From an uncultured Methanosarcinales archaeon (GTDB lineage: Archaea > Nanobdellota > Nanobdellia > Woesearchaeales > CAYPCY01), in assembly GCA_964409385.1 (NCBI GenBank), contig CAYPCY010000001.1:41456-105455 (forward strand): DNA of 64,000 bases. Direction: 5' to 3'. Under the pieces are notes generated by a model that saw only the letters and a list, made by a program, of their open reading frames with translations, searched no databases and was not told where the DNA came from. Position numbers and translations under genes: made by a program. Below are positions 7,776 to 58,200 of this stretch, one piece after another. The first letter of the stretch is position 1; every line of letters begins with the position of its first letter.

Positions 7776-7835
7776 TATTATTATTTTGTTAAAATAATTT
7801 AAAATAATTTCTTAGTTAATTTCAGAAATATTTCA

Positions 7836-8228: not shown

Positions 8229-8229
8229 T

Positions 8230-17762: not shown

Positions 17763-17794
17763 GTTAGTAGATTTTATTCTTGGAGAGGAATATA

Positions 17795-40671: not shown

Positions 40672-41733
40672 TTGGCAGATAATGAAGATATTGGAATTCC
40701 AGCTCCTGAAAAGACATTACCAGCTTTAGATGCTGATGAAGAATCATTATTAGAACCTGATAATTCTCCTCCTGCTTTAGAAGATCATATTGATAATTTT
40801 GAAAAATCTTCTGAAGATAAAGAAGTTGTTAAAGAAGAAATTTCTAATATTGAACTTCCTAAGGAAACTTTAGAGTCTCCAAAGGAAGATACAATTCCTA
40901 ATATTGAAACTAAGTTAGAAGCTGCAACTCCAAAAAAGGGTTTTTTTCAGAATATTAAAGAAAAATTCAGTAAGCAAGAAACTAAACTACCTACACCTGT
41001 TAAGATAGAACCTGTAAGAACAGAACCTGAACTTCCTAAAGAAGAACTTGTTGAAGAACCAAAAGAGACAGAATTGCCTCCTGAAGTTGAAGGGAAGAAA
41101 ATTTCTGACATTATTGAAAAAGTAAAGGATAAAGAAGATGATATTAGAAAGCGAGAAAATTTACTTATTATAAAAAGGGAGGAACTCAAGCATAAATCAT
41201 TAGATTTGAAGGGTATGGAGTCTGAAATTAATAATAGACTTACTAAGCTTGAAGAATTAGAAAAATTAATTAGTAGTAAAGAGGGAGAATTAGCGTATAA
41301 AGAAGAGTTAATTGCTGAAAAGGAAAAACAAATTCTTGAAATTGAAGATTATGTTAAAAAAATTCAAGAAAAGAGGATTAAACAGGATGTTTTTATTGAG
41401 ACTACTGCTAAGAAGCTTGATGAAAAGTCTATGTTTAAGAATTTCCTTCATGAGAAAATTCTTCCTAAAGAAGAAATTCCTTCTATGGATATGGAATTTG
41501 ATAATTTTTCTGAACGTTTAGATAAAATTCAAATTTTTAATTTAGTAGATTATGCTTATTCTTTATTAAGGGAAGGTAATTATTCTGAGGCTAGAAAAGT
41601 TTATTCTCGGTTAAGATTGAAATTTAAGAATTCAAGACTTGATTCTGTTGAGAAAGCAGTGGCATTGACTGCTGTTAAAAGCTTATATTTTGATTTAAGA
41701 TCTTATTCTGAAGGTCTTGTTTCTAGCCAATAA
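40672..41733 (+). CDS. Acidic, Glu/Lys-rich coiled-coil protein
   Basis: PE/KE-rich low-complexity N-half and a coiled-coil C-half. Confidence 0.35.
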   Translation: MADNEDIGIPAPEKTLPALDADEESLLEPDNSPPALEDHIDNFEKSSEDKEVVKEEISNIELPKETLESPKEDTIPNIETKLEAATPKKGFFQNIKEKFSKQETKLPTPVKIEPVRTEPELPKEELVEEPKETELPPEVEGKKISDIIEKVKDKEDDIRKRENLLIIKREELKHKSLDLKGMESEINNRLTKLEELEKLISSKEGELAYKEELIAEKEKQILEIEDYVKKIQEKRIKQDVFIETTAKKLDEKSMFKNFLHEKILPKEEIPSMDMEFDNFSERLDKIQIFNLVDYAYSLLREGNYSEARKVYSRLRLKFKNSRLDSVEKAVALTAVKSLYFDLRSYSEGLVSSQ

Positions 41734-42746
41734 TCGTCATACATAAATTTTGTTTGTAGAAATTGTTCAATTACATAAATTTCTGATTTCATATGATTAG
41801 TTGTTTTTTCCATTATTATTTTGCTTCCTGGAAGTAATCCCATTATTATTAATACTTGATCAGCCATATGTTTGTCTATAGAATTTACTGATTTCACTTC
41901 TTTATCTAAATTTTCTGAAGCTACTCTTCCTATTTGTTCGGGAGTTCTAAATCCATCATCTAAAAAATCGGTTCCTATAACAACATCCTCAAATATTCCC
42001 CATAGTGTAATTCCTGAACCTTTATTTGCTGATTTTGAGTATTCATTTCTTACATCTGCATTAAATATTAGTCTTGGTGGTCTTGCTTGTTTTTCAGTGG
42101 TTTGTTCTTCTATTTGGTCTTGCGATGCGTGACTTACTCCTTTTACATGTAATAATTCTCCTTTTTCTCTTAATTTTAATGGTTCAAAACTTGTTCTTAT
42201 TTTTTTTAAGAATTCTTCTGCAGTATGTTTTGATCTATGAATTCTTGCTTTGAAAATGAATTCGCATTCTCCTTGTCCATTAGGGAAATATCCTCTTTTT
42301 GATATTGTTGCTTGAAATTTACAGTATTTATTCAGGAAATTTCCGTAAACATTCACGAAATAGTCATAACTGGGGCTCCATTTAACATCAGTTCCTCCTT
42401 TTATTTTTACTTTTGAATCCATAAACATTAGTAGTGGACTTAATGCTTGCATTACTAGTGTTATTGAACCTGCCGTTGTTATTTCTATATTCAAGTTTTT
42501 TTGAACTAGTGTTTTTGGAGTGAATTCTACTTCTTCACTTCCTAGACTTGCTCCTTTTATTTCTGCATTTGTTAATTCTTGTATTGCTTTTAGAACGTGT
42601 AAATGTTGATTTTTTATTCCTGGTGTTTTTCTTCCTTTCCTTATATTTACTATTTTGAAGGGTTTTCTTGTTAATGCACTTAGTGAAACTGCTGTTCTTA
42701 ACATTTGACCTCCTCCTTCATATAAGCTACCGTCTAGTTCTATCAT
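41703..42746 (-). CDS. rtcA: RNA 3'-terminal phosphate cyclase
   Basis: IELDGSLYEGGGQMLRTAVSLSALT..PFKIVNIRKGRKTPGIKNQHLHVL matches the RtcA N-terminal signature. Confidence 0.85.
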   Translation of the reverse strand: MIELDGSLYEGGGQMLRTAVSLSALTRKPFKIVNIRKGRKTPGIKNQHLHVLKAIQELTNAEIKGASLGSEEVEFTPKTLVQKNLNIEITTAGSITLVMQALSPLLMFMDSKVKIKGGTDVKWSPSYDYFVNVYGNFLNKYCKFQATISKRGYFPNGQGECEFIFKARIHRSKHTAEEFLKKIRTSFEPLKLREKGELLHVKGVSHASQDQIEEQTTEKQARPPRLIFNADVRNEYSKSANKGSGITLWGIFEDVVIGTDFLDDGFRTPEQIGRVASENLDKEVKSVNSIDKHMADQVLIIMGLLPGSKIIMEKTTNHMKSEIYVIEQFLQTKFMYDDYWLETRPSE

Positions 42747-42814
42747 GATTTATTGTAGTCTTTCATGTTTAAAAAGCTAACAGATTGAATTAATTACTAG
42801 TTAGTGACAAAAAG

Positions 42815-42829
42815 AACAAGTTTTATAAA
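42815..42829 (+). promoter_or_regulatory. TATA box (GAACAAGTTTTATAAAT) 22 nt upstream of ATG 42852; leaderless
   Basis: Same motif family as 17745. Confidence 0.35.
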
Positions 42830-42851
42830 TGATTAAAGCAAAAAAAGAAAC

Positions 42852-44234
42852 ATGCTTGCTAAAGAAATAGACATAATAATTTTTAGTATAATAAGTGGTA
42901 GAAGATTTACTGAAAATTTTAGAGAAACTTACTCACACTATCGATTAGCTTTGGATTCTTCAAACCTAAACATAAAATATCATAATACTGATGATAGATT
43001 ATATAAAGATCTTAAATCAAGAGAAACACTTCCATCATTAATTATTTATGAGTTACGTAATTTTCCAGCAATGGATACTGAATGGTGGTTATTTCATAAA
43101 GTAGTAAATAAAAAATTTCCAGGAATTAAGAAAATTGCTAGCTTAGGTAAAATAAAAAAACCAGAGAATTATCTTCATTCTTCTCTTTCTGATGAGAAGA
43201 TAATATTTAAGGAACAAATTGCTTACAAAAAACCTTTCGGAAAGGAATATCTTGAAGAAATATTAAATCCTAAGAATCACATAATTAAAACAAAAAAGAA
43301 AGAATTAATACCTTCTAAAAAAAACTTATTTGATAAAGTTGATGAACTCTTAGATCTTGGATTCAGAGGGTTTGTTTATACTCCTATCATTGATTTTCTT
43401 CTCCAAACTGAAGCAAAAAGTTTACTGAAATTTAATCTTAATGTCCAACCTTCAAAACTATATTTAATTGTTGCGCCTTCTGGTTTTGGAAAAACTTCTT
43501 TAATTGAAGAATTAAAATACTGCGGAGTTAAACAAACTCCTAAAATAACTACAAGACCATATAGACCATTAATAAATCCAAGAAATAAAGTTTTATACGA
43601 ACCACTAATCGAGGAATTCAATGAAGAACTAAAAGAAGAATTTGGAAAAAACTATGAAGAAAAAGTTCTTACAGAACTATCTAAAGAATTCACAAATACT
43701 AAAGATCCTGAATCCGAATCCATAATTCAGGAAATTTTTGAAATTCTTTCTGACAAACAATCAAGAAATAATTATAAGGAGAAAGGAATAAAATCAATAA
43801 AACCATCTAAATTCACTAAACAAGTTAAAGATGGGAAAATTCTAGGTTCTCACTTGTACAAAGGAAATCTGTATGGCTTTGAAAAGAAAAAATTTGATAA
43901 ACTTGTAGATTCAACAGATCAATATGTTTTCGACATTTGCGACTTAGATACTGCTCTTAAAGTTAGAGAAGAAAATGAAGGAAGGGTTGAAATAATTGGG
44001 ATTTTTCCTTCATTATTATTCGCAGGATTTGGTCTAGAGAAAAAAATTGAAAATTATAAACTAATAAATAAATATTCTTCTTACATAATGCGAGAAACTA
44101 AAAATAGATTAAATCAAATAATTGCAGATTCGAGATTCATTGAAGAAAACCATGACAAATTCGATCTTATCTTAGATAAAGACACGATAAGAGAAAACAG
44201 AAACACAATGTTAGAGTATATGAGTAGAAATTAA
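42852..44234 (+). CDS. Guanylate-kinase-like P-loop protein, paralog 1 (460 aa, with an ~190-aa N-terminal extension)
   Basis: VAPSGFGKTSL (P-loop)...KITTRPYRP (cf. GMP kinase TTR.PR.GE)...YKGNLYGF...DICDLDTALKVRE. Confidence 0.5.
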   Translation: MLAKEIDIIIFSIISGRRFTENFRETYSHYRLALDSSNLNIKYHNTDDRLYKDLKSRETLPSLIIYELRNFPAMDTEWWLFHKVVNKKFPGIKKIASLGKIKKPENYLHSSLSDEKIIFKEQIAYKKPFGKEYLEEILNPKNHIIKTKKKELIPSKKNLFDKVDELLDLGFRGFVYTPIIDFLLQTEAKSLLKFNLNVQPSKLYLIVAPSGFGKTSLIEELKYCGVKQTPKITTRPYRPLINPRNKVLYEPLIEEFNEELKEEFGKNYEEKVLTELSKEFTNTKDPESESIIQEIFEILSDKQSRNNYKEKGIKSIKPSKFTKQVKDGKILGSHLYKGNLYGFEKKKFDKLVDSTDQYVFDICDLDTALKVREENEGRVEIIGIFPSLLFAGFGLEKKIENYKLINKYSSYIMRETKNRLNQIIADSRFIEENHDKFDLILDKDTIRENRNTMLEYMSRN

Positions 44235-44235
44235 A

Positions 44236-45336
44236 ATGAAACAACAATTAAAAGAACAAGGATTTGATATTAGTAAAATAGATAAACAAGACATTTTTAA
44301 AATATTCAAAACAAATGAATCAAAAAGCGCTCATAGAATAGGTTTTTTTTTGGTTGAAAAATTAAATGCTCCGCCCTATTTTGTTAAAATACAATTTGAA
44401 AAAGAAAATTCTGAAGTTGAAATAATTAAAGAAAATAAAATTAATTTTTTTGCATTTAACTTAAAAGAATCTGGCGCATGTAATACATATTTAAAATTAA
44501 AAAAAAGAAAAGAAATAGATTGTGGAATTGGTTTTGGAATACTAAATAAGTCTATAGAAAAAACAAATAAATTAGCCATTAAACTGAATTTAGAATCTTA
44601 TCTTGATGATTTTGCTTACCTTAATAATAACTTTGTTTGTGAACTAGAATCACTTATTGAAATCAATAAAAACATGTTCAAAAATCAAGGTTTTACAATT
44701 TTGGGTCAATCAGGAGTTGGAAAAAACACTTTAATAAATAATCTTCTCCAATATCATAAACGAGCAGGACTTTGCACTAAAATAACTACTCGTCCTTTAA
44801 GAAAAACAGATAATAGAATTAGACAAGTTTCTGAAAAAGAATTTATTAAGCTTATCAAGAAAAAACAATTAGTTGGTTTGAATGAATATGACAATAATCT
44901 TTATGGATATCTTCGAAATGAGATTGAAGCACATATTAAATTCGGATTAGATATGTTTATAGACACGGTAGTTCCTGATGTCGCAACCGATTTAAAAAAA
45001 GAATTTCCTGGTTTTTTTAGAACTATAACTCTTGAGAAAAAAAATGAACAAGTTACTTCTAATTTGATTAACAGATTTGAAAAATTTGATAAACAGAATT
45101 CAAATTTAAATTATCAAAGGCAATCTTTGAATAACAGAATAAATAAGCTTATTGAAAGTGACGAAGAATATAATAAAATGATTGAAATTGCTGATTTTGT
45201 TCTTAAAGATGATTTTTTTGGTTTCAAAAATAATGAGTTTAGAAGATATATTAATTATTCCAGAACTGTTTTATTTCATCCAAAAAACATAACTTTAACA
45301 GATAGATATAATAAATTATATGGAAGACACAAATAA
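44236..45336 (+). CDS. Guanylate-kinase-like P-loop protein, paralog 2 (366 aa)
   Basis: ILGQSGVGKNTL...KITTRPLRKTD...EKEFIKLIKKKQLVGLNEYDNNLYGY aligns to Gmk SAPSGAGKSSL...HTTR.PR.GE...EEF....G.F.E.A...YGT. Confidence 0.5.
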   Translation: MKQQLKEQGFDISKIDKQDIFKIFKTNESKSAHRIGFFLVEKLNAPPYFVKIQFEKENSEVEIIKENKINFFAFNLKESGACNTYLKLKKRKEIDCGIGFGILNKSIEKTNKLAIKLNLESYLDDFAYLNNNFVCELESLIEINKNMFKNQGFTILGQSGVGKNTLINNLLQYHKRAGLCTKITTRPLRKTDNRIRQVSEKEFIKLIKKKQLVGLNEYDNNLYGYLRNEIEAHIKFGLDMFIDTVVPDVATDLKKEFPGFFRTITLEKKNEQVTSNLINRFEKFDKQNSNLNYQRQSLNNRINKLIESDEEYNKMIEIADFVLKDDFFGFKNNEFRRYINYSRTVLFHPKNITLTDRYNKLYGRHK

Positions 45337-45727
45337 AAAAGGAACTCTAGAATTACTATGTGGACCGAGTGGAGTTGGAAAATCATTTTCAATTCCTGAA
45401 GGAAATAAATCATATAGATGGACTACTCGTCCAAAACGTGAAGGAGAGATAGACAGTAGAATTTATTCTGGAAGAACTACTGACGGATTCTTTATGGCTG
45501 AAGAAGAATTTATTGGAAAAAAGGAAGAACTGGTTGGCATTCATAAATATCCTGATCATAACACAAATTATTATTATGGATTTCCCAAGAGAGATATAAT
45601 TAAAGCGATAGATGAAGAAAAAACTATTAATATTTTTAAGACTGCTTTTACAGATCTGATAGAGTCTAATAAAGAATCAAATCTAATGTATTATTTCATA
45701 GACTATTTAGATATTTTTTCTGACTAA
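45320..45727 (+). CDS. Guanylate-kinase-like P-loop protein, paralog 3 (135 aa, kinase core only)
   Basis: LLCGPSGVGKSF...WTTRPKREGEIDSRIYSGRTTDGFFMAEEEF. Overlaps paralog 2 by 17 nt. Confidence 0.5.
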   Translation: MEDTNKKGTLELLCGPSGVGKSFSIPEGNKSYRWTTRPKREGEIDSRIYSGRTTDGFFMAEEEFIGKKEELVGIHKYPDHNTNYYYGFPKRDIIKAIDEEKTINIFKTAFTDLIESNKESNLMYYFIDYLDIFSD

Positions 45728-45728
45728 T

Positions 45729-46388
45729 TTAACCTTTCAAGAACATTTCTATAGCTTCTACTTGATCTCTTCTAAACTTACCCAACAAACTAGGTAGTTT
45801 ATTTATAGAAATCCATTCTCCTGATTTGGATTCTTCAGAAAGTCTTATTTCTTCATCTTCATAATCCACTCTATAATATGTTGCCCATTCTTTATTTGCA
45901 GGATTTAATATTTTCTTCTTAAACAATAGTTTCAAACGACTTTTATCAATATTAATCCCTGCTTCTTCTTTCATTCCTCTTACTGCTCCATTATCATAAC
46001 TTTCTCCAATATTCAAATGTTCACCAACACTTAAATCAGCACATCCTGGAAATAAATCTTTATCTTCTCCCCTATACTGTATGTAGACTTTATCTTTGTC
46101 TACTAGAAAAACATTGGATCCTCTGTGAAAGAAAAAACTTCCTAAACTTCCTTCACCATGACATTCTTTTCTATAAAACAATAATTTTTTTTTATTAACA
46201 ATTACTGGTTTGTCTTCAGAATCAAATATTTGGAATAATTCTCCACTTCTCTTTTTTTCATATAATATTATGAAATTTTCAGTTTCTCCTTTTTTTAAAT
46301 TCGAAGAATTTTGAATATCAGAATTGCAAAGCAATTCTTTTGTTTCTAACTTTTTCCCTGTAATCTTCTCTAGGTCTTCAATCTTCAT
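45729..46388 (-). CDS. Nudix hydrolase
   Basis: VGEHLNIGESYDNGAVRGMKEEAGI approximates the Nudix box G.5E.7REU.EE.GU. Confidence 0.5.
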   Translation of the reverse strand: MKIEDLEKITGKKLETKELLCNSDIQNSSNLKKGETENFIILYEKKRSGELFQIFDSEDKPVIVNKKKLLFYRKECHGEGSLGSFFFHRGSNVFLVDKDKVYIQYRGEDKDLFPGCADLSVGEHLNIGESYDNGAVRGMKEEAGINIDKSRLKLLFKKKILNPANKEWATYYRVDYEDEEIRLSEESKSGEWISINKLPSLLGKFRRDQVEAIEMFLKG

Positions 46389-47293
46389 TTTACTTTCAGT
46401 GTTAGTAATGCGCTTTTCATTTCAAATGCTGTTTCAAACATGTTTATTAAAATTCCTAGAATTTTTGAATCTTTTCTTTCTTTTCCAGAAATAATGTCTA
46501 TTTCTTTTCTTATAGAAACTTCTTTTTCTCCCAAACTTAAAATTTTAGAGAATTTAAAGTCATAAAGTAATTCATAAAATATTTTTACTAAAGAATTTAT
46601 TTCTTCTAATAATTTAATTAAATCTTTCTCTACTATTATTTTTTTGTTTGAAACTTCTTGATTTAAACTCTTGTAAATATCTGCTAAGATTTCTGTTTGT
46701 TCAGCAATAACATATAATGGAAATGGTCTGTCGTAATTTACTTGATGACCTGCATTTAGTATTCTCCTACAAAAATCTGTATGTCTATCTACAATTCTAT
46801 CTTTTGAAATTATTGATTTTGAATGTTCAAAATCTTTTTTCTTAATTGCATTTAGTGTTTCTTCTGCAATATCTAAAATTGCAAATCCCATCTTTCTAAA
46901 TATTGTATTAAAATCTTTAGGATCTAATGAAGATATTGTTTCTACTATTACTGTTTCTTTCTTCACATCCATTATTTCAAAAACGTGACAAGTCCTGTCC
47001 AAAGTATTCTCAATAATTTCAAGCTCCTTATCAGTAGAATACCTTAATTTAACATTTCTAAATCCTGCTTTGTATATAGCGCATATTGTCCTATTAAGCA
47101 TTGACTTCAAATTAGTTAAATCAATATCAATTTCTGAATATACTTTTTTCTTTGATGTTCTTAGAACTAATGAGTTTTTTTCTTCATCAATATTCAGATC
47201 ATCTCCTTTAGAAATATTATTTTTCTTAACCCAATCACTAGGCAGACTAACTGTTAAAGTGTTCTGACCAACTAAATTTACTTTTCTCTTCAT
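46385..47293 (-). CDS. AbrB/SpoVT-domain plus PhoU-like regulator
   Basis: N-terminal LVGQNTLTVSLPSDWVKKNNISKGDDL (swapped-hairpin AbrB-like) followed by a helical PhoU-like repeat region. Confidence 0.45.
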   Translation of the reverse strand: MKRKVNLVGQNTLTVSLPSDWVKKNNISKGDDLNIDEEKNSLVLRTSKKKVYSEIDIDLTNLKSMLNRTICAIYKAGFRNVKLRYSTDKELEIIENTLDRTCHVFEIMDVKKETVIVETISSLDPKDFNTIFRKMGFAILDIAEETLNAIKKKDFEHSKSIISKDRIVDRHTDFCRRILNAGHQVNYDRPFPLYVIAEQTEILADIYKSLNQEVSNKKIIVEKDLIKLLEEINSLVKIFYELLYDFKFSKILSLGEKEVSIRKEIDIISGKERKDSKILGILINMFETAFEMKSALLTLKVK

Positions 47294-47338: not shown

Positions 47339-48307
47339 TTACTGAAATATATATTCTTGTAAATTAACTGGTATTGTATTGCCCATTACTAATACTTTGA
47401 AGTCTTTAATTACATTAGGGAATTGTTGCCCTAGTGTTCTCATAAAATCATAAACCTCATTTATTGATTCATAATGTACTATTAATTCAAGATTTGTAAT
47501 CCCTATATACTCTGATAAGAATATTACTCTATTATTCATTGACAAATAAGTAATCATCTTGTTTTTTTGTTCTACAGGACAAGCTCCAAAATGCATTAAA
47601 ATCCTGAATTTTGTATTTCCTATCTTTTGTGTGCTTATTATTGCTTTAAACCTTAATATAATCTCTTCATCAACTAATTTTTTTATTCTATAACTTATTG
47701 CATTCGCTGTTAATCCTAGCTTCTTTGCTATTGATACAGATGATGTTTTCGCATTTTTTGTTAATAATCTTATTATGTTCTTATCAATATCATTAATAGT
47801 TGCTGGCGTAATAACTTCTTTTTCCATTCTTACTTGCTCATGAGTATTATTTTCTATAAGATAATCTAAAGCATATTCATTAAAGCTTACTCCTAGCATA
47901 AGATTTGAATTTAAAATTTTGTTACCAAAATTTTCAAAAAATTTGTCTTCTATCACTTTTATTTCAGTTAGTGTTTTTGCTCTTATTGACAAGGAAAAAT
48001 CATAATCTCCATAGAATAATGTTATAAAACCTATCTTCTTATCAGATTCACAAAACTTCATTAATTCTTTAATATCATTATCACTAAATCCTGTGAACTT
48101 AACATAAATTTTTGAAAATAAATATCCTAGCTTTAAGCTATTTAGTTCAAGATCATAATTCTTTATTATTCCTTTTTCTTCAAGTCTTTTTATTCTATAC
48201 GCTATTACTTCTTTAGCTAAACCTATCTTTTTTGATAGTGAATTCATAGATTGTCTACAATCAAGATTTAGATGATACAATATTTTTTTATCTTTAACAT
48301 CTAACAT
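47339..48307 (-). CDS. Tandem double Lrp/AsnC-type regulator (two HTH-RAM modules). Start taken at the internal ATG; the track start is 48373.
   Basis: Two HTH segments (SMNSLSKKIGLAKEVIAYRIKRL and SSVSIAKKLGLTANAISYRIKKL), each followed by a RAM-like domain. Confidence 0.55.
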   Translation of the reverse strand: MLDVKDKKILYHLNLDCRQSMNSLSKKIGLAKEVIAYRIKRLEEKGIIKNYDLELNSLKLGYLFSKIYVKFTGFSDNDIKELMKFCESDKKIGFITLFYGDYDFSLSIRAKTLTEIKVIEDKFFENFGNKILNSNLMLGVSFNEYALDYLIENNTHEQVRMEKEVITPATINDIDKNIIRLLTKNAKTSSVSIAKKLGLTANAISYRIKKLVDEEIILRFKAIISTQKIGNTKFRILMHFGACPVEQKNKMITYLSMNNRVIFLSEYIGITNLELIVHYESINEVYDFMRTLGQQFPNVIKDFKVLVMGNTIPVNLQEYIFQ

Positions 48308-48637
48308 ATTATTAAAAACAAAAATTATCTTTTTAAATTTTTTGTTTTTCGTAAAAAAATAGAAATTATCCAAAAATTAAGATTATTTTTTTAAAAAAAA
48401 TAGAAATTTTATAATTTTAATAAAAAAATTAAGTAAATATTTTAGTTTTGATTAAAAAATAAACAATTAGTTTTATAATAGGGTTTTGACTTATAGTCTT
48501 CAAACCAGTAAAAACACCAGTAATTACATAATTACTAATAATAATTATAATTGACAAAAGTATATATGTTCCCAATCACATATACTAAATAAATCCATTA
48601 ATTGATTGGAAGATTTACAAAAAAACTGGAAAATTAA

Positions 48638-49069
48638 ATGAAAAGTACCGACCTTGAAATACTAAGACAATTAAGAAAGAATTCGAGAGAATCAATAACT
48701 AACATTAGCAAGCAAACCGGAATTCCAACCTCAACAGTATTTTGTAAAATAAAAGATCACGAGAGGTTAATAAAAAAGTACACTGCCTTGATTGACTTTT
48801 CAAAACTCGGCTTTAACAATTGGATGAGGTTGGTCTTCCATATTGAAAGGGAAGAAAAAGAAAGATTAATGGAATTACTAAAAGAGAACGAGAACATAAA
48901 CTCAATTCATGAACTAGTTGGAGAATCAAATATCATGATTGAAACAATTCACAGAAACATCAAGGATTATTTAGACTTCCTTGAATACTTACAATCAAAG
49001 TTTGAAATTAAAGAATTACAACAATTCCATGTCATAACTGACAAAAAACAAGAAGCATTTATGAACTAA
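48638..49069 (+). CDS. Lrp/AsnC-family transcriptional regulator
   Basis: ILRQLRKNSRESITNISKQTGIPTSTVFCKIK is an HTH; RAM-like C-terminus. Confidence 0.6.
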   Translation: MKSTDLEILRQLRKNSRESITNISKQTGIPTSTVFCKIKDHERLIKKYTALIDFSKLGFNNWMRLVFHIEREEKERLMELLKENENINSIHELVGESNIMIETIHRNIKDYLDFLEYLQSKFEIKELQQFHVITDKKQEAFMN

Positions 49070-49080
49070 AAAATAAGAAA

Positions 49081-49599
49081 ATGATAGCGTTAGCTTTGAA
49101 TAAAAAGGAAAAATTGCTAATAAGTTTCCTAAGACAAAATGCTAGGGAGACTTTAACTAATCTTAGCAAGAAAACTTCAATTCCAATAAGTACAATATAT
49201 GATAGTCTAAAAGAAAATAATTACATTACTAGAAATACTTGTTTATTAGATTTTGAAAAGTTAGGATTTCATACTCGTGTTAATATTTTCTTAAAATCAT
49301 CTGCGAAAAATAGAAAAGAGTTGGAAAACTACTTGGTAGGTCATCAAAATGTTAATTCTGTCTTTAGAATAAATAATAATTTTGACTTTTTGATAGAAGG
49401 AATTTTCAAGCAAGTAAAGGATGTTCAAGAAGTTATAGAATTACTTGAAAAAAACTTTGGAGATTTAAAAAAAGATATTTTTTACATTACTGAAGAGTTG
49501 AAGAAGGAAGAATTTCTCAGTAGTCCTGACCTGGTACAAACCCAAAAAACTTCCAAGATGACCGGAAATCCTCCGGCAAATTCTGGGTATGTCTTTTAA
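49081..49599 (+). CDS. Lrp/AsnC-family transcriptional regulator, paralogous to 23149-23598
   Basis: LISFLRQNARETLTNLSKKTSIPISTIYDSLK is an HTH. FRINNNFDFLIEGIFK resembles the 23149 protein's FKVNNQYDFLVECIFK. Confidence 0.6.
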   Translation: MIALALNKKEKLLISFLRQNARETLTNLSKKTSIPISTIYDSLKENNYITRNTCLLDFEKLGFHTRVNIFLKSSAKNRKELENYLVGHQNVNSVFRINNNFDFLIEGIFKQVKDVQEVIELLEKNFGDLKKDIFYITEELKKEEFLSSPDLVQTQKTSKMTGNPPANSGYVF

Positions 49600-52500
49600 A
49601 ATGAATAAACAAACTTTATTTATGGGGGAAGTAATAAATAAAACAAATATACTTTCGTTAAAAGTATTATCTTTCTTGCTCATATTCATCTTACTGCCTT
49701 TTGTTATTGCCTCTGAAACAACTTATGGTTCAGTCTATGAAATTGAAGAGATTGACAGAAAAGAATTATTTCAAGAAACAGTCAGAGAAAAACTTGAAAA
49801 ACAAGCATTAATCTATAAAGTAATTCCTACAGAAAAAGGAAATGAAATTTACAGAATTGATTCTGAAGGTAACATTATTGATGAAGATATTCCTCTTATT
49901 ATAAGTTCAATTAATTTATCTTCAAACTATTACGATGCAAAAATTTACGAGTCTCAAATTCAATCTCAAACTGTAAAACAAGGTAGTGGTGAAGGAGAAT
50001 CCTCCACTAGAGATATGGATTGTAATAATGCATATTATTTAGATTGGGAAGATGAAGGATCCGTCACCGGCTGGTATCCTCCAAACGAATACGAAAATCA
50101 TTGGTTTGAAATAGATCTTCCTAACGATGATGAATTTCTGATAGGTATTGACATGTCTAATAATGATGATTTTGATTTATATGTACATCCTGAATGTAAT
50201 GATGGATGGGTTTGCAGACCGTATGATGGAACAGGAGATACAGAAATTTGTTATGTCGATAATTTAGATGGAGATGTCTATATTAGAATTCATGCATATT
50301 ATTTAGGAGATGATGATCCTTATTATCTATATATTTATCCTCTTGAAGGAAATAATGATTATTGTGATATTTGGGATGATTGGGGAGTTCCTTGTGAAGA
50401 AGGAGAGTGGGATTGTGAAAGTGATTCTGATTGTGAGTCTGGTTTAGATTGTATGGGACCTTATGGAGATTACAATCCTAATTATTATGATGGATGTTGT
50501 GAACCTGGCGATGAATGGGACGCCAACAGTCATGAATGTATTTCAGGAGGTTGCGAAGAAGGTTGGTTAAACGAATATGATTGTGGTTCTGGCAACATGA
50601 GAAAAAGACTTTACCAAAATTCTGACTGTAGCACTGATTGGGAAAATTGGGAAGATTGTGACGATTATGATACAGGGTGGGATTACTTCTGTTCTGGAGA
50701 TTGTATACAAAGAGAAGAAACAGATTATTACTGTTCTGATTCTTCAAATTCTTGCCAAGGAAGTTATGACCAAGATACTCTTTCTTGTAACGGAGATTCT
50801 GATTACTGTGACGATAGGTATGATCATCAGGACGCTTGCGGAAAGTGTGGATATGAAGATTACGATTGTGATTGGAATAGTGAATGTTCAGGAAGTCTAG
50901 AATGTACAGGACCCATCTGGGGAGCACTAGATGGTTGTTGCAATCCAGGAGAACAATGGGACGGTAGCGGAAACTGCGGAGAATGCTTCGCAGACAGTGA
51001 CTGTGACGATCAAAATTATTATTCAGGTTGGAATTACGAATGTGGTAGTAATTATGTTAAAAAATATAGGACATTTTACGATTTTGGTTGTTCAGGAGGT
51101 AATGATTGTGTAGCTAATCAAATAAACGAGGAAGAAATTTATTATAATGGAAATTCTGATTATTGTTCTAAGAGTATAGAATTTGGTTGTGGAGGGTGCG
51201 ATTATGAACAATATGATTGTGATTGGAATAGTGAATGTTCAGGAAGCCTAGAATGTACAGGACCCATCTGGGGAGCACTAGATGGTTGTTGCAATCCAGG
51301 AGAACAATGGGACGGTAGCGGAAACTGCGGAGAATGCTTCGCAGACAGTGATTGTAACAGCCAAGATTACTATTCAGAATGGTATTACGAATGTGGTTAT
51401 GATTATGTCAAAAAGTATCGAATATTTTATGATTATTCTTGTTCAGGAGGTAATGATTGTATAGTTAATGAAATTGTTGAAGAAATAATATACAACAATG
51501 GAAATGAAGATTATTGTGATAAAAGTTTAGAGTATGGTTGTGGAGCTTGTGGATATGAACAATATGATTGTGATAGTAATAGTGAATGTTCAGGAAGCCT
51601 AGAATGTATGGGTTCAATCGGAGGCGCACTAGATGGTTGTTGCAATCCAAATGAAGAATGGGATGAAGTTAATTATGAGTGTATTTTCAACACTGTTTGT
51701 GGTGATGGAATTTGCAGTCCTGACGAGTATTGTGTTCAAGATTGTTTAGTTATTGACAGTTTTATTGACAATCCTGACTCTGTTGATTATGGAGAACCTG
51801 TTTCAGTAACTGTTAAGGTTGATAATATTGGAACTGTTACTTTATCTGAAAATATCGAAGCAGGAATTGTTCCTGAATCTTGGGCTGGTTTAATCTATCC
51901 TGATAGAAGTTCTACTCCTATTAGTGGTTGTTGTGACGCAAACGAATATTATGATTCTTTCCATCTGGAAATTAGTCCTGGACAGAGTGAATACGTTACT
52001 TTTAGTATTATAGCTCCTAATCCTGACTCTATTGATAATTGTGGTGATGGGGGTAGTGCTTGGGATTCTTCATTTAATTTAATTTCAGGATTGTATGTTG
52101 AGTGCTTTGAAGGATATACTGATTTTACAAGTACGGAGATTGATGTTTCTTATGAACCTCCTTGTAATAATAATGGTATTTGTGAAGAGTGGGAAAGTTT
52201 TGAAACTTGTTCTTCAGACTGTGTGTGTAATGGTAATGGAATTTGTGATGGTTTAGAAACTTTTGATACTTGCGCTAGTGAATGTTATTGTGATTTTGAT
52301 GGAACTTGCGACAGTTTTCAGGGAGAGAATGAGTATACTTGTGCCGCTGATTGTGTTCCTGATTGTGATATTCCTGACGGTAGTTCTTACGCTTGTGATT
52401 GTGATTCTAATATTGAATGTCCTTCGGGTTTGTTCTGTAATTTTGTTTCTGGTCCTGACGCTTGTGAGGAGATTAATTATGAGGATGAATGTTCTAACTA

Positions 52501-54739
52501 TAATGATTATTATTGTAATTCTGGAAATGTTTTCCAGTGTGTTTTTGAATCTACTAATTATGTTGAGGAACTAGTTGATGTTTGTACTAGTGGAGAGTTT
52601 TGTGATTCTCAAGTTGTTTCTGGCACTGGCGAGTGTAGTTTATTACCTGTTCATTTAGACTTGTGGATTGATTATGCACCTGTTGGTTTAACTGTTAATA
52701 AGCAAGTTGGTGATGTATTCACAGTTAATATTTATGCGGAACAGTCTACAACTGTTGATTTACAATATTCAGCAGTATTTTCTGGAGATTGTCCTCTAGG
52801 TAGTTATTCTTTAGACACTGGAGTTAATTCTTGCGAGTTAAGTGTTAATTCAGGATTTGGTAATTATATTATTAGTGTTAATGATAATGTAGTTACTTTG
52901 AATATTGTTTCAGAACCTTCATTGATTGTTGTTACTAATGTTGAGAAGTTGTTTGAAAGATTCCCTTATGAAGAAAGAGGGGTTGAAGCTACATTAAGTC
53001 AAACTTATGAGAATTCTGTTTCAAATTCGGTAGTTTATGATCTTAGCAAGTACATTTCTGGACATCCTTTCAATAGTTTTTCAAATTATAATGAGCATGT
53101 TGATAATCTTAACATGATGGATAATTCTTATACTGTTGAAGCTTCTGAATTCATTAAGGAAAAATGTAATGGTTGTTCTGATATTATGATTCTTGGTGAT
53201 GATTATGTTATTCCAGGATATAGAAGAATTATTGATGAGTACTTGACTGAATGGTTATGGTTTAACGGCGTTGCTGTAGAGTCTGTAATAACTACTGACA
53301 TTCCTTATATTGAAAAAGAAGTTTTATTGTTTTCTGAATATTTCGAAATTTTCAGGCAAGGATCTGGTTATCAGGGTAAGAATGTCTTAGTAATTCATCC
53401 TGCTAATGAAGATAGTTCCATGAGTGATAGTATTGAAGGTTTGAAGACTGCTTTTGTTGATCGTGGTTTTGATCCTGACTTCACAGATATTTCAGGAGAT
53501 ACTATTTATTGTGTTGATGAATCTTGGAGTAGTGATGCTTCTGGTAAGACTCTTATTCTTATTGGTTCTGAAGAGGATAATAATGCTTTTTCTTGCTTGC
53601 CTTTTATCCAGGCAGATTTAGATAATTATAGTGCTGCTCACTTACTTCCTAACGTTTGGGATACTGACGAATTTGCCTTAGTAATTAATACTGATGATCC
53701 TGCTGTTATTGAAAGTTTCGCATCTATGGTTAGAGAACAACAACTTGAGAATTTAGGTAGTGAGACTGCTTACTTCTTTAATATGGGAACTCAATATGTT
53801 GGTTATGGAGCTTTGGTTCTTGGTGCTGGGTTGATAATTGCTGGTACTGGTGGTGCTGCAGCTCCTGCAGGTTTGATTTTAATTGGGGGTATTGCTAATG
53901 TTGCTGCAGATTCAACTGATGTTGCTAATACTTGTTATGTTAATTATGATAGTATGGGCTGGTGTGGAGGCACTATTGCCTTAGCAGCAATTCCGGTCCT
54001 CCCTAGCAAGCCTGTTAAAGCTTTTATCAGGCAAATTAAGGATTTCAATTTTAATCAAATTGTTAATTTGCAATTAGTAGATGATGTAATGAAGAAATCC
54101 ATTAAATATTTTCAACCTGACGATCTTAAGAATGTAATTAAAAATGAGGAAACTCTTGAATTATTTTCTGACGGTAAACATTTCTTGATAGGGGGGGATG
54201 ATATTACTTCTATTAAAGTTGCTGAATTTAATAATATTAAAAAAGAACATTTAGCCGAAGGTTTTGTTAACTTGAAAAGGTTAGATTTAGATAATGCTTA
54301 TTTAGATCCTGATTGGTTAACCCAATTAAGAATGCAAGGAGGAAATCCTGGCTTTTGGGCTGAATTAAAACATGCTTCTGATCAGATAGATAATTTTGAT
54401 AAAGTTATTGTTGGGAAAAGACATGTAGGACTTAATATTGACATGGATGTATTATTGAAAAAAGAAGGCGTTCAAGAAGCTATTCTTGATGAAGTTAAGA
54501 ATTATAATAGTCTTCTAGAAATAGAAGAATTTAATTTAGGAGATGATTTATACAAACAATTAACTGCAAGAATTGGTTCTATAGGAACTACTGTTGAAGT
54601 TGCAGGAGATACTCTTACAATAACAAATGTCAGACTTATTGTTAGAGAAAATACACCTATAGGTCCAAATTTACAAACATTTTTAGATGAGAATCCTTCA
54701 ATGGAATTAATTAGATTTAGAGGAGTTGATTGGCCATGA
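49589..54739 (+). CDS. Giant secreted Cys-rich protein (1716 aa) with tandem ~117-aa Cys-rich modules, a Gly/Ala-rich hydrophobic segment and an unknown C-terminal domain
   Basis: Signal peptide LSFLLIFILLPFVIASE. Repeated modules CG.CGYE.YDCDWNSECSGSLECTGPIWGALDGCCNPGEQWDGSGNCGECFADSDC. More than 150 Cys in total. Confidence 0.6.
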   Translation: MSFKMNKQTLFMGEVINKTNILSLKVLSFLLIFILLPFVIASETTYGSVYEIEEIDRKELFQETVREKLEKQALIYKVIPTEKGNEIYRIDSEGNIIDEDIPLIISSINLSSNYYDAKIYESQIQSQTVKQGSGEGESSTRDMDCNNAYYLDWEDEGSVTGWYPPNEYENHWFEIDLPNDDEFLIGIDMSNNDDFDLYVHPECNDGWVCRPYDGTGDTEICYVDNLDGDVYIRIHAYYLGDDDPYYLYIYPLEGNNDYCDIWDDWGVPCEEGEWDCESDSDCESGLDCMGPYGDYNPNYYDGCCEPGDEWDANSHECISGGCEEGWLNEYDCGSGNMRKRLYQNSDCSTDWENWEDCDDYDTGWDYFCSGDCIQREETDYYCSDSSNSCQGSYDQDTLSCNGDSDYCDDRYDHQDACGKCGYEDYDCDWNSECSGSLECTGPIWGALDGCCNPGEQWDGSGNCGECFADSDCDDQNYYSGWNYECGSNYVKKYRTFYDFGCSGGNDCVANQINEEEIYYNGNSDYCSKSIEFGCGGCDYEQYDCDWNSECSGSLECTGPIWGALDGCCNPGEQWDGSGNCGECFADSDCNSQDYYSEWYYECGYDYVKKYRIFYDYSCSGGNDCIVNEIVEEIIYNNGNEDYCDKSLEYGCGACGYEQYDCDSNSECSGSLECMGSIGGALDGCCNPNEEWDEVNYECIFNTVCGDGICSPDEYCVQDCLVIDSFIDNPDSVDYGEPVSVTVKVDNIGTVTLSENIEAGIVPESWAGLIYPDRSSTPISGCCDANEYYDSFHLEISPGQSEYVTFSIIAPNPDSIDNCGDGGSAWDSSFNLISGLYVECFEGYTDFTSTEIDVSYEPPCNNNGICEEWESFETCSSDCVCNGNGICDGLETFDTCASECYCDFDGTCDSFQGENEYTCAADCVPDCDIPDGSSYACDCDSNIECPSGLFCNFVSGPDACEEINYEDECSNYNDYYCNSGNVFQCVFESTNYVEELVDVCTSGEFCDSQVVSGTGECSLLPVHLDLWIDYAPVGLTVNKQVGDVFTVNIYAEQSTTVDLQYSAVFSGDCPLGSYSLDTGVNSCELSVNSGFGNYIISVNDNVVTLNIVSEPSLIVVTNVEKLFERFPYEERGVEATLSQTYENSVSNSVVYDLSKYISGHPFNSFSNYNEHVDNLNMMDNSYTVEASEFIKEKCNGCSDIMILGDDYVIPGYRRIIDEYLTEWLWFNGVAVESVITTDIPYIEKEVLLFSEYFEIFRQGSGYQGKNVLVIHPANEDSSMSDSIEGLKTAFVDRGFDPDFTDISGDTIYCVDESWSSDASGKTLILIGSEEDNNAFSCLPFIQADLDNYSAAHLLPNVWDTDEFALVINTDDPAVIESFASMVREQQLENLGSETAYFFNMGTQYVGYGALVLGAGLIIAGTGGAAAPAGLILIGGIANVAADSTDVANTCYVNYDSMGWCGGTIALAAIPVLPSKPVKAFIRQIKDFNFNQIVNLQLVDDVMKKSIKYFQPDDLKNVIKNEETLELFSDGKHFLIGGDDITSIKVAEFNNIKKEHLAEGFVNLKRLDLDNAYLDPDWLTQLRMQGGNPGFWAELKHASDQIDNFDKVIVGKRHVGLNIDMDVLLKKEGVQEAILDEVKNYNSLLEIEEFNLGDDLYKQLTARIGSIGTTVEVAGDTLTITNVRLIVRENTPIGPNLQTFLDENPSMELIRFRGVDWP
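50837..51700 (+). repeat. 351-bp coding tandem repeat (2 near-identical copies plus a partial third) inside the giant protein gene
   Basis: Copies start at 50837, 51188 and 51539. The spurious ORFs 50931-51113 and 51282-51464 are displaced by exactly 351 nt and are near-identical. Confidence 0.8.
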
Positions 54740-55299
54740 GTAATTATAATAAATTTATTTTTAAGATTGAAAAAGAAGAAGATATTGAATTAATTAATAG
54801 TATAATAAATAAATACTGTTCTGAAAAAAATACTACTGAAGAATCTTTCAAACAATTAATTATTGGTGAAATGATTATTGATGTTTATTATACTGTAGAA
54901 AAAGATAGTTCTAAAACTAAATATGTTAGTTTTTCGGTTAATCAAATCAGGTTTAGTACTGAATCATTTTATAATTTAATTAAAGAGATAGGATCGGCAA
55001 TTTCAATGTCTGGAACGGGATATAACGAATACGAACCAGAAAAGGATCCTGAAGTTTTAGAAGAGGGTAAAAAAGGAATTTTTAAGAGATCTTATGATGT
55101 TGAAGATTTTTGGCCTTGGTCTCTTTTTTCTAAAGAATTAGTTGAAAAATACGGTAAAGATAAATTGTTTAGTGCTCCTGTTGAATTTGTTGAAGAATTT
55201 AATAATGGTTCTGTATTTTTAATGATTAATAAAAATTCAATGGGAACTAATAACTTCGAACAAAGAAAAAAATTAAGGGAATACTTAAGAAATGAATAA
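54730..55299 (+). CDS. Hypothetical 189-aa cytoplasmic protein overlapping both giant genes (possible accessory, immunity or chaperone)
   Basis: Its start overlaps the 49589 gene stop by 10 nt, and its stop overlaps the 55292 gene start by 8 nt. Confidence 0.35.
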   Translation: MAMSNYNKFIFKIEKEEDIELINSIINKYCSEKNTTEESFKQLIIGEMIIDVYYTVEKDSSKTKYVSFSVNQIRFSTESFYNLIKEIGSAISMSGTGYNEYEPEKDPEVLEEGKKGIFKRSYDVEDFWPWSLFSKELVEKYGKDKLFSAPVEFVEEFNNGSVFLMINKNSMGTNNFEQRKKLREYLRNE

Positions 55300-58200
55300 A
55301 CAATTAATTTTAGGAATTTATATTTTACTTTTGTTTTCACAAGCTTTAGCTGTGGAGTTTGTTAGTGAGAAAAATTCTGTTTCTAGAATTGTTGGTGAAT
55401 CACCTACTGAATTAATTACTCAATTGAAGAGAACTTCTCTTAATATTGATGAAGCTACTTATTACAGTTACGAAACAAGTCTTATTAACAAGAAAGATAA
55501 TATTCTTAATGAACAATTTGGTGGTGTTGATACTAATCTTCCTAATTATTATAATTTTTACGAAATTCAGGATTCTGTAGATTCTCTTTCAAATAATGAA
55601 TTGTTTATTCTTGAAGCATTTGGTGGAGATTCTTTTCAAGAGGTTAAATCTGCAAGTTTTTTAGGGGATGAATTATCAGTCCAGGATATTACTGATTGGC
55701 AATCTTCTTTTGAAATGAATACTCCCTTATTTATTTTTGATGCTCCTAATGCAGGAGTTTACATGCCTAAGGATGATACTTTCGTTTCTAGACTAGTTAG
55801 GGATTCTACAATAATCGCTCCTTCGTATTATAACTCTCCAGAATTTACCAAGTCAGTACTTTGTAATTTACAGTCTGGAAAGACTATTGGTGAGACTTTC
55901 AAGGATGCTAGAAACTTCCATTTTAATGGCGGTTCCTCTAATAATTATATTGGATTGGTTTTACAGTCTTATAATTTATATGGTAATCCTAGACAGGTTA
56001 TTTCCATGCCTTCCTTTGACATTGCTGATTACTGCCAGAATAATCTTGAAAATTTAGCGAATGGTATTGAATATTTGGGGGAGGTTGGTAATTATTCTTT
56101 GTTTAGAAAACATTTAACTTACACTATTGATGATTTTGAAATTGTTAATAATACTATTGAAATTCCAGGTCTTAATCAAAGGCTTTCTTTTGGAGAACCA
56201 ATAGTTCCTGTTTCTATAAGAACTACTTATTTTCCTAAAGATACTATTTTCATGAATTTTAGTGTTAATGAAATCAGTAATCCAGAAAGTTTTAATCTTA
56301 ACTTTTCTTCTTACGAGTTTGACTTTGTTGATAGGCATTGTTATCAAGAAGAGTTCGGAGAGGAAATCATTCTTTCGGAAGGTTATGGTAAGACTCATAA
56401 TTTGATTGCTAAAATACTTCCAGTTAGGATTGATAATTGTTCTTCTGGAGATATTACTTTATTTAAACAATTTAATTACAGTGTTGATTACATCACATTA
56501 AGTCCTGTGATGATTAAGGAAGTTAGTGTTCCTTCAAAAGTTTATTCTAATGAAATTGTTAATGTTGATGTTGAAATTTTGAATTTGAAAGATTCTGTTA
56601 GTTTTGGTTCTTTGGCTGTTTACAAGGGTTCTGAACTTATTACTGAGAATGAAATTAACTCTTCAATTTATAATCATACATTAAGTTTTTATGCGCCTGA
56701 AGAGGGAATTCATAAGTATAGTGTAGAATTTATTTTTGAGAATGAAACTGCTCATTATAAAGAGTTTATTCTTGAGTCTGTAATTTTAGAAGTTGATGCT
56801 TCCATTCCAGTTTCTATAAATGAAGAAACCACTATTAATCTAGAATTATACTCTCCCTTAACTTTTGATACTGTTATGGAGTATTACTTGTTAAAAGATG
56901 AAGAGATTCTTGATTCTGGAGTTTTAGAGTTTGAAGTTTCTGGATTAATAAATCAAGAAATTTCTTTTACTGGACTTTCAAGGGAAGACCAGAATTATTT
57001 GCTGAGAATTAATAATTATTACTTAGGGAATCAGAAAACTAATACTTTCTTATTAACAATTAATAATCTTCCTTTACTTAATGTTGATTATGATACTGTT
57101 TTTGAAAATGAATCTTTCATTATTAGTTTTGAAGCTACTGATTTGGATAATGATCCTTTAACAATTTCAATAGATGATGAGAATTTCATTCAAGAAAATA
57201 ATAGTTTTGTTTGGGATACTGAATTTACTGATTCTGGAGATTATACTGTTGAACTTACTGTTTTTGATGGTTTATTAACAAATTCTTTGCTTATTCCATT
57301 TTCTATTGAAAATTGGTTATTGCCAATGAGTATTTCTGGCGGTTTAGTTTATAGTAATGGAGAAATAATTAATAATTCAATTTTGGATGTTTATATTAAT
57401 AATATTTTATTTAGTAGTTTTGAAGTTGATACTAGTTATTCAATTAATATTCCTGCAGACAATTTTGATAATTATGGTTTTTTTGAAGATGATATTATTA
57501 GTTTCAAACTTGATAATTATGACGTTGTGGAAACTTTAAGTTTCATTCCTGAAGAAGAAATTAGTTTGGACTTGACTGTTTTACTTCCTAATACTGCTCC
57601 TGTCTTTGATGAAATTTCTGATCAATTAATTAATGAAGGTTATGCTTTAACTATTGAACTTAATGTTTCAGATCCTGATGGTGATGACTTAACTTATTTA
57701 CTTGAAGGTCCTGGAATTTTATTCAATAATACTTATGTTTGGGAGACTTTATTTGAAGATTCTGGAATTTATGATGTTTCAATAATAGTTTCAGATTTTG
57801 AATATTCAATCACTAGAACATTCTCTATTGAAGTTTTGAATATTAATAGACTTCCTGTAATTGAAGAAATTCTTAATCAAATTATTCATGAGAATGAAAC
57901 TTTAATTATTGAACTTAATGTTTCAGATCCGGACAGTGATGAATTAACAATTTCATTGGATGGGGTTGGAGAGATAATTGATGAAACTTTTGTTTTCTCT
58001 CCTGAATATGGTAGTTCAGGAATTTATGATGTTTCAATAATAGTTTCAGATTTTGAATCTTCAGTTACTGAAAATTTCTCTATTGAAGTTTTGAATATTA
58101 ATTTACCTCCAGTTGTAGAGTTTGAATTTGATGATGAATTAGTTAATGAGGTAGACTCTATCAGCATAATAGTTAATGCTGTTGATCCTGATAATAATGA

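Follow-up and report, generated by a model that had tools for sequence, protein, structure and literature searches.

The 64,000-nt stretch of archaeal DNA analysed here (contig CAYPCY010000001.1, positions 41,456 to 105,455; hereafter the window) carries three tandem genes for guanylate kinase (GK)-like proteins, GK1, GK2 and GK3, followed on the opposite strand by genes for a Nudix hydrolase and for a transcription regulator of the SpoVT/AbrB-PhoU type (Table 1). The three proteins represent three separate subfamilies of multi-domain GK-fold proteins, in which the residues that read guanine in guanylate kinase (Gmk) have been replaced and whose genes occur beside AbrB-PhoU genes in other loci as well.

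Table 1. Coordinates of the GK-like array, its domains and the adjoining features of the window
Feature	Position	Strand	Description
RtcA	41703-42746	-	RNA 3'-terminal phosphate cyclase, divergent from the GK array
RtcA-GK1 intergenic region	42747-42851 (105 bp)		Putative divergent promoter/operator region; equivalent in locus L001, 5436-5517
GK1	42852-44234	+	460-aa open reading frame (ORF); pseudo-receiver and GK-fold kinase domain
GK1 residues 1-185	42852-43406	+	Receiver-fold (beta-alpha)5 domain with a degenerate phospho-acceptor pocket
GK1 residues 197-460	43440-44231	+	GK-fold domain, P-loop and TTRPYR intact
GK1 residues 241-312	43572-43787	+	Lineage-specific helical insertion of ~70 aa in the nucleoside monophosphate (NMP)-binding domain, directly after TTRPYR
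GK2	44236-45336	+	366-aa ORF; N-terminal domain (residues 1-140), GK-fold domain with conserved C-terminal tail (150-366)
GK3	45320-45727	+	135-aa ORF; truncated GK3-type protein, P-loop and NMP-binding region kept
Nudix hydrolase	45729-46388	-	DR0079/YfcD/IPP-isomerase-like subgroup; converges on the array
AbrB/SpoVT-PhoU regulator	46385-47293	-	Core partner of GK-like arrays
Lrp/AsnC regulator	47339-48373	-	Tandem-domain protein (Pfam HTH_24 and HTH_AsnC, each twice; NCBIfam); probable accessory regulator
Two Lrp-like genes	48638-49069 and 49081-49599		Follow the Lrp/AsnC regulator

Relationship of the array genes to guanylate kinases

A single nucleotide separates GK1 from GK2 (TAA A ATG), and the reading frames of GK2 and GK3 share 17 nt. 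Each product has a P-loop (APSGFGKTSL at residues 208-217 of GK1, GQSGVGKNTL at 157-166 of GK2 and GPSGVGKSF at 15-23 of GK3) and a TTRPxR block (TTRPYR, TTRPLR and TTRPKR, respectively). The coordinates, lengths and motifs listed for the three ORFs in a preliminary description of the window all proved exact, as did the opposite-strand Nudix gene. No further GK-like ORF was found in the window. Pairwise identity among the three proteins is no more than 24-39%, and this in parts of the domain only. The Pfam threshold for Guanylate_kin (PF00625) was passed by GK2 only (41 bits against a cut-off of 25, E = 2e-10). All three matched the Gmk model TIGR03263 (E = 4e-8, 1e-13 and 1e-5 for GK1, GK2 and GK3), with scores of 33, 51 and 25 bits that lie far under its equivalog cut-off of 160, and the phage guanylate kinase family phrog_1815 (E = 3e-10, 3e-13 and 7e-8). 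Membership in the GK superfamily is secure because the family profiles retrieved guanylate kinases as their sole matches from the PDB (E = 6e-21 and 2e-18); the three-dimensional GK fold, with its CORE, NMP-binding and LID parts, was likewise found. Judged by these profiles, the likeness of the three proteins to guanylate kinase is not due to chance.

Three subfamilies of GK-like proteins

K-mer homology searches returned almost no relatives (2, 2 and 12 matches), a scan of a genome collection gave no match for the GK1 family and one locus for the GK3 family, and two metagenome scans with loose patterns yielded, in one case, none confirmed among at least 600 candidates and, in the other, only canonical-like kinases of 25-35% identity. 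When 1.84 billion representative proteins were searched exhaustively with a profile made from a GK-domain alignment of the three groups, 8181 matches were obtained. The ~80 best of these (90-180 bits) are multi-domain proteins; canonical Gmks of ~190 aa score ~70 bits. Among the best 150 representatives of the 8181, 145 could be classified, as 40 GK1-type, 16 GK2-type, 26 GK3-type and 63 canonical proteins, and the GK-like proteins among the top matches form ~85 clusters at 50% identity. A viral origin was considered and rejected, as viral contigs yielded no true relatives.

The three types differ in architecture. In GK1-type proteins (330-450 aa, maximum 830 aa) the GK domain is preceded by a receiver (REC), pseudo-REC or LRR domain at the N-terminus; GK2-type proteins (330-440 aa) have the same order with an N-terminal domain distinct from that of the GK1-type; and in GK3-type proteins (450-780 aa) the GK domain is N-terminal and precedes a long helical C-terminal region. 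Profile searches found no relatives of the GK2-type N-terminus or the GK3-type C-terminus in the PDB. The N-terminal extensions of GK1 and GK2, described earlier as unique, are each common to a family of relatives.

When hidden Markov models (HMMs) of the subfamilies were built leave-one-out, with the window genes and their close orthologs excluded and a canonical model made from 14 Gmks, GK1 scored 228 bits with the GK1-type model, 93 and 23 with the other GK-like types and 48 with canonical Gmk. The corresponding scores of GK2 were 232 bits with its own type, 82 with the other GK-like type listed (the GK3-type score is unlisted) and 68 with canonical Gmk, and those of GK3 were 146 bits, 24 and 19, and 50. 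On these scores, GK1, GK2 and GK3 are members of three ancient GK-like subfamilies and not recent local duplicates. The 'paralogs' of the preliminary description are not local ones: each stems from a separate ancient subfamily. In the literature we found no description of REC-GK proteins or of GK arrays in DPANN archaea.

Remodelling of the acceptor site

The active sites were compared in an alignment of 15 canonical Gmks with 37 GK1-type, 16 GK2-type and 27 GK3-type domains (yeast numbering). In Gmk structures (1GKY, 1EX7), S34, E69 and S/T80 contact the guanine base, and R38/R41 and Y50 bind the GMP phosphate. The P-loop lysine K14 is invariant in all 80 subfamily sequences. R38 and R41 of the TTRxxR block, like Y78, are fully or almost fully conserved throughout the three subfamilies and occur in GK1, GK2 and GK3. 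The same degree of conservation holds in each aligned group for Y78-G79 and for the LID arginines R135 and R146. The positions that contact the base have changed. S34 is replaced by Lys in 36 of 37 GK1-type and 16 of 16 GK2-type sequences and by Arg in 21 of 27 GK3-type sequences, E69 by Gly or Ala in all three subfamilies, and S/T80 by hydrophobic or aromatic residues across the subfamilies, in which Y50 is lost too; in 13-15 of the 15 canonical Gmks these four positions (S34, E69, S/T80 and Y50) hold S/T, E, T/S and Y. The window proteins follow the pattern, with K/K/R at S34, G/G/G at E69, F/Y/F at S80 and I/I/G at Y50 in GK1, GK2 and GK3, respectively. D100, tabulated along with the guanine-recognition positions, is variable across the alignment and not uniformly lost. 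In the LID, GK2 has R135 and R146 with R131 changed to Asn, and GK1 has R146, a Gly at R131 that is family-wide and a Lys at R135 that is confined to this copy (1 of 37).

According to this alignment, all three subfamilies have replaced the guanine-reading residues and retained those of phosphoryl transfer. Because the residues are kept and replaced in this pattern, guanine specificity appears to be gone, with the phosphoryl-transfer machinery and the phosphate-acceptor clamp remaining under selection. The predicted acceptor pocket is now more basic and more open than in Gmk, and since an invariant Lys/Arg stands in place of S34 and Gly/Ala in place of E69, the acceptor probably exceeds GMP in negative charge or in bulk. 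Together with the low equivalog scores, these replacements agree with the earlier remark that the array is unlike a housekeeping gmk. Several family members are nevertheless annotated as guanylate kinase by the Joint Genome Institute (JGI).

Conserved association with AbrB-PhoU genes

We scanned all 478 ORFs of 11 loci (217 kb), which had been fetched through their GK-like genes, and found 26 GK-like and 10 AbrB-PhoU genes. An AbrB-PhoU gene adjoins the array, which comprises one to five GK-like genes, in 9 of the 11 loci, so that the GK-like subfamilies are genomically locked to this regulator. Every AbrB-PhoU gene in the 217 kb lies beside an array with at most a Nudix gene in between, as in the window, and none lies elsewhere. 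Eight of the AbrB-PhoU copies are 30-89% identical to that of the window, and the copy in locus L030 was identified by the family HMM (E = 2e-43). Accessory genes are less regular, Nudix being present in 3 and Lrp/AsnC in 5 of the 11 loci. The neighbourhood thus proved conserved, and the preliminary suggestion of a nucleotide-handling or signalling module was right in its direction, towards a non-housekeeping function; the conserved partner is AbrB-PhoU rather than the Nudix hydrolase.

The layout of the loci is diverse. Locus L001, from a close relative, is syntenic with the window and lacks GK2. In L022, AbrB-PhoU, Nudix and four overlapping GK1-type genes are all co-directional; in L023 the order is AsnC, AbrB-PhoU and GK2-type; and L025 has an HTH regulator, AbrB-PhoU, three GK3-type genes, an LRR-GK1-type and a GK1-type gene. 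An LRR-GK1-type gene is convergent with AbrB-PhoU in L027, and so are the GK3-type, GK2-type and GK3-type genes of L028, where AsnC follows and the layout is the same as in the window. A GK3-type gene adjoins AbrB-PhoU in L007 and L030, L031 has two tandem GK1-type genes, and L026 has three REC-GK1-type genes. Lrp/AsnC-type genes flank the module in L001, L023, L025 and L028 in addition to the window. Because gene order and orientation vary between loci, the association points to functional linkage rather than to inherited synteny.

Two observations concern signalling genes in these loci. A 292-aa HATPase_c protein with a possible H-box (L026, 4935-5813, minus strand) is encoded two genes from the three tandem REC-GK1-type genes of that locus and may be their cognate histidine kinase. 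Genes for GGDEF-domain proteins, which are unusual in archaea, lie near two arrays (L025, 20376-21461; L028, 7495-8310), and one of them encodes a REC-GGDEF protein.

The AbrB-PhoU regulators belong to a known, functionally uncharacterised archaeal family (PMC7325993, PMC6316755), whose members, such as TK2245 of T. kodakarensis, are widespread in archaea and have been listed as chromosome-associated (PMC7325993). Among eight orthologs from the loci, Pfam recognized the AbrB domain (MazE_antitoxin) in all eight and PhoU in five (best E = 1e-5); no relatives of the PhoU part were found in the profile-versus-PDB search. In the literature we found no reported function for AbrB-PhoU, no functional link between SpoVT/AbrB-PhoU and GK-like kinases or Nudix hydrolases, and no earlier description of an AbrB-PhoU-linked GK-like array.

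Domains of the window proteins

The N-terminus of GK1 has the (beta-alpha)5 fold of a receiver. An AlphaFold 2 model computed from the 28-sequence family alignment reached pLDDT 77 and pTM 0.77; an earlier model from a 3-sequence alignment (pLDDT 38) was unusable. Pfam Response_reg (PF00072) did not match GK1 itself and was passed by 5 of the 28 family members (best E = 3e-14); the remaining N-termini of the family align to those REC domains (hhalign E = 3.5e-5). GK1 has Glu67 at the position of CheY D57, T/E for D12/D13 and E for K109, and we regard this domain as a pseudo-receiver because it has Glu at the acceptor Asp and lacks both the D12/D13 pair and K109. D57 is present in 15 of 18 relatives, including the GK1 ortholog P0001; K109 is retained only in 8 REC-type relatives, 5 of which are called by Pfam. 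The ~70-aa insertion in the NMP-binding domain was found only in GK1, P0001, P0002 and the fragments P0027 and P0030; it is modelled with low confidence and evolves fast, with 47% amino acid identity to L001.

The idea that the GK2 N-terminus is also a receiver found no support (hhalign probability 0.1%). GK3 lacks much of its family's sequence. Its residues 7-103 correspond to residues 2-98 of P0005, the 273-aa ortholog in L001 (80% identity), and its residues 99-135 to 236-272 of P0005; relative to this ortholog, ~137 internal residues are gone, including part of the core sheet and all three LID arginines (R131, R135 and R146), and the long C-terminal domain of the family is missing as well. 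Instead of the bare kinase core of the preliminary description, GK3 is by this comparison an internally deleted remnant that, with its LID arginines and part of the core deleted, is predicted not to be kinase-capable. Since the retained parts show a ratio of nonsynonymous to synonymous substitution rates (dN/dS) of 0.15, GK3 is still maintained by purifying selection, perhaps as a nucleotide- or ligand-binding subunit.

Selection and the upstream region

All dN/dS values were computed against L001. They are 0.08-0.13 for the flanking genes (dN 0.05-0.09), 0.075 for AbrB-PhoU, 0.19 for the Nudix gene and 0.35 for GK1 overall (dN 0.26), with 0.48 for the GK1 pseudo-receiver and ~0.2 for its kinase domain.

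A 141-nt stretch that spans the RtcA-GK1 intergenic region (42735-42875) is 95% identical to L001; in the flanking genes, 36-52% of the synonymous sites differ between the window and L001. A TATA-like TTTATAAA is found at 42822-42829, 22 nt upstream of the GK1 ATG, and from it we infer a TATA element and a leaderless start of GK1. On this sequence evidence, the intergenic region is probably a regulated promoter/operator of the array. By eye, it also contains a AATTAATT palindrome flanked by CTAAC...GTTAG, and an A-run that is A7 in the window and A8 in L001, so that an upstream ATG at 42829 is out of frame in the window and in frame in L001. A bacterial promoter/terminator scan gave 35 sites against 29 expected, its models being bacterial and uninformative for an archaeon.

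Other genes of the window

The Nudix protein matches Pfam NUDIX (PF00293) with 33 bits against a cut-off of 21 (E = 7e-8), and its closest solved relative is DR0079 (PDB 1q27, E = 6e-5). Its Nudix box, GEHLNIGESYDNGAVRGMKEEAGI, has RG where the canonical GX5EX7REUXEEXGU has RE, a feature that the window protein shares with its orthologs in L001 and L022 (RGMKEE, RGLKEE and RGCQEE, respectively). The L001 ortholog (7775-8383) occupies the same position and is 72% identical, and that of L022 (6058-6705) lies inside the operon and is 42% identical.

The divergent arrangement of RtcA and the GK array also occurs in L001, with no RtcB nearby, and is absent from the distant loci; this pairing is probably a lineage-specific synteny. 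The neighbours are ordinary genes (RtcA, DUF1385, VIT1, Lrp), and no histidine kinase is encoded in the window.

With ~28% GC and very tight gene packing, the window is typical of DPANN lineages, and its gene content is archaeal (aIF2-gamma, Elp3, Cbf5). Identical copies were found in several marine metagenomes. Genes of bacterial type encode a MetK-type S-adenosylmethionine synthetase (9049-10155), DnaK (30995-32854; GrpE nearby) and an SLT-domain lytic transglycosylase-like protein (17780-19153), which is consistent with horizontal acquisition in a DPANN-type genome. Between the Lrp-like gene and an ABC transporter, the region 49589-59734 holds two giant ORFs, one of 1716 aa with near-identical Cys-rich tandem modules of ~95-125 aa and local GC of up to 0.37, the other of 1480 aa; because the two genes flanking this region adjoin in L001, it looks like a ~10-kb insertion of surface-protein genes.

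Proposed function and alternatives

We propose, with a probability of roughly 0.55, that the array and its partner form a conserved archaeal (DPANN-type) module in which an AbrB-PhoU regulator is combined with a tandem set of GK-fold kinases that are fused to sensor domains and whose acceptor bears a phosphate and is not GMP. The module would consist of a SpoVT/AbrB-PhoU factor beside a translationally coupled array of one to five divergent GK-fold P-loop phosphotransferases, often with an Lrp/AsnC regulator and sometimes with a Nudix hydrolase. The kinases would turn their acceptor into its diphosphate at the expense of ATP, with the accessory domains gating their activity; the Nudix hydrolase, where present, would reverse the reaction; and AbrB-PhoU would control or read out the module and, in doing so, might respond to a phosphate-related ligand. 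GK1 and GK2 of the window are plausibly active kinases.

Several points weigh against this proposal. GK1 has Lys at the otherwise invariant R135 and carries the insertion in its NMP-binding domain, the N-terminus of GK2 (residues 1-140) shows deletions relative to P0026 and is thus a shortened version of the family domain, and GK3 is truncated, so that this copy of the module may be partly degenerate. With a Nudix gene in so few of the loci, antagonism between kinase and Nudix hydrolase cannot be general. The loci were chosen through their GK-like genes, and the occurrence of AbrB-PhoU was measured only beside such genes; the taxonomic range is drawn from gene content and a few labelled records (a Nanoarchaeota metagenome-assembled genome and an 'archaeon' entry). 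What is said of kinase activity, of the substrate and of how AbrB-PhoU and Nudix act is read from sequence, and the roles of the canonical residues from the textbook structures of yeast and E. coli Gmk.

The same genes could be explained by signal transduction, in which the GK-like proteins phosphorylate AbrB-PhoU or act on it as an NTPase switch, with REC, LRR and helical domains as sensors and several sensors converging on one factor. The P-loop ATPase PstB, which partners with PhoU in bacteria, provides an analogy. We consider this possible, though unlikely, because Y78 and the arginines of the acceptor site show exactly the conservation seen in NMP kinases for small molecules, the Nudix gene inside the L022 operon suits a small-molecule diphosphate better, and we know of no GK-fold protein kinase. 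The variable copy number, the absence of GK2 from a relative as close as L001, the remnant GK3, the LRR and REC sensor domains and the fast evolution of GK1 relative to its neighbours, most marked in its sensor domain, would all suit diversifying NTP-dependent effectors or sensors engaged in conflict with viruses or in host-symbiont interaction, for example by manipulation of nucleotide pools. Such a role is unlikely, however: PADLOC defence-system models gave only a P-loop-level match, no relatives were found in viral contigs, the ordinary neighbours form no defence island, the partner transcription factor is under strong purifying selection, and catalytic domains have dN/dS of ~0.2.

If the proteins were instead the lineage's own NMP kinases for salvage, each for another base and guanylate kinase among them, the Nudix hydrolase would trim NDP and NTP pools, as might be expected from its relative DR0079, which we take to hydrolyse nucleoside di- and triphosphates. 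DPANN archaea generally rely on salvage, the proteins share their fold and phosphate-acceptor residues with NMP kinases, and the JGI labels agree; archaea in general, to our knowledge, seem to lack guanylate kinase. This housekeeping role is nonetheless distinctly unlikely, given that the guanine-specific residues are lost in all three subfamilies, that scores of 25-51 bits fall far below the Gmk equivalog cut-off, and that a housekeeping enzyme of a large radiation should form more than the ~85 clusters seen among the top matches. A copy number of 1-5, REC and LRR domains, the loss of a paralog between close relatives and evolution 3-5 times faster than that of the neighbours are also unusual for essential kinases. 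Finally, the preliminary description raised the possibility of PhnN-like chemistry, with the proteins as ribose-1,5-bisphosphate phosphokinases that feed phosphoribosyl pyrophosphate or the archaeal pentose-bisphosphate nucleoside pathway. The acceptor pocket does look fit for a more anionic ligand, E. coli PhnN presumably carries a basic residue in place of S34 and has lost E69, and GK2 weakly matches the PhnN models TIGR02322 and NF007485 (E = 2e-4 and 7e-4). The bit scores of these matches (19.3 and 21.4) compare poorly with cut-offs of 156 and 153, GK1 and GK3 are not matched, and the scores with Gmk models are higher in every case; the annotated genes in the window and in the loci included none for phn, RuBisCO, AMP phosphorylase or ribose-1,5-bisphosphate isomerase; and the REC/LRR domains and multiple paralogs would be left unexplained. 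We therefore hold the PhnN-like reading to be highly improbable.

Within the proposed AbrB-PhoU module, a more specific and tentative possibility, to which we give little weight, is that it constitutes a DPANN signalling pathway. Its sensor-fused GK kinases (REC, LRR, helical) would make a diphosphorylated small-molecule messenger or pyrophosphorylate a protein phospho-site, the Nudix hydrolase would erase the mark and the PhoU domain of AbrB-PhoU would read it. DPANN-type archaea, as far as we know, are largely without classical two-component systems. If true, this would amount to a new writer/eraser/reader nucleotide-like pathway and a new specificity of the guanylate kinase fold.

What is new here are the three GK-fold subfamilies with a remodelled acceptor site and the REC-GK, LRR-GK and GK plus long helical domain architectures. 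Automated pipelines label such genes 'guanylate kinase' or 'hypothetical', and metabolic reconstructions that took over these labels would credit DPANN archaea with a gmk in error. The module offers a testable handle on what AbrB-PhoU regulators sense or control, and on the regulated phosphotransfer chemistry kept by genome-reduced archaeal symbionts; if the acceptor turns out to be a metabolite or messenger not described before, the range of reactions catalysed by the NMP kinase fold would widen.

Comparison with known systems

Compared with Gmk (EC 2.7.4.8; PF00625, TIGR03263), the archaeal proteins are multi-domain, encoded in tandem arrays and linked to AbrB-PhoU, and their guanine-reading residues are replaced. 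Phosphorylation of a non-nucleotide, doubly phosphorylated acceptor by a kinase of the GK superfamily is a feature of PhnN, which, unlike the GK-like proteins, has no accessory domains; the latter score 19 bits against 156 with the PhnN model and lack the phn (carbon-phosphorus lyase) context. The non-catalytic GK domains of MAGUK proteins have lost the P-loop and bind phosphopeptides, whereas the archaeal proteins retain the invariant P-loop Lys and the LID residues R135 and R146 family-wide, and their architectural likeness to eukaryotic LRGUK and MAGUK proteins is probably convergent.

GK1-type proteins resemble response regulators of the REC-GGDEF and CheB type in that a receiver fold at the N-terminus precedes the catalytic domain. 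In some members D57 and K109 are also retained and the Pfam Response_reg threshold is passed, and a HATPase_c gene lies nearby in L026, although the GK1 of the window is a pseudo-receiver protein and the window is without a histidine kinase; we found no GK-fold output domain of response regulators described in the literature. The gene at 46385-47293, in turn, has the same architecture as the archaeal SpoVT/AbrB-PhoU regulators exemplified by TK2245.

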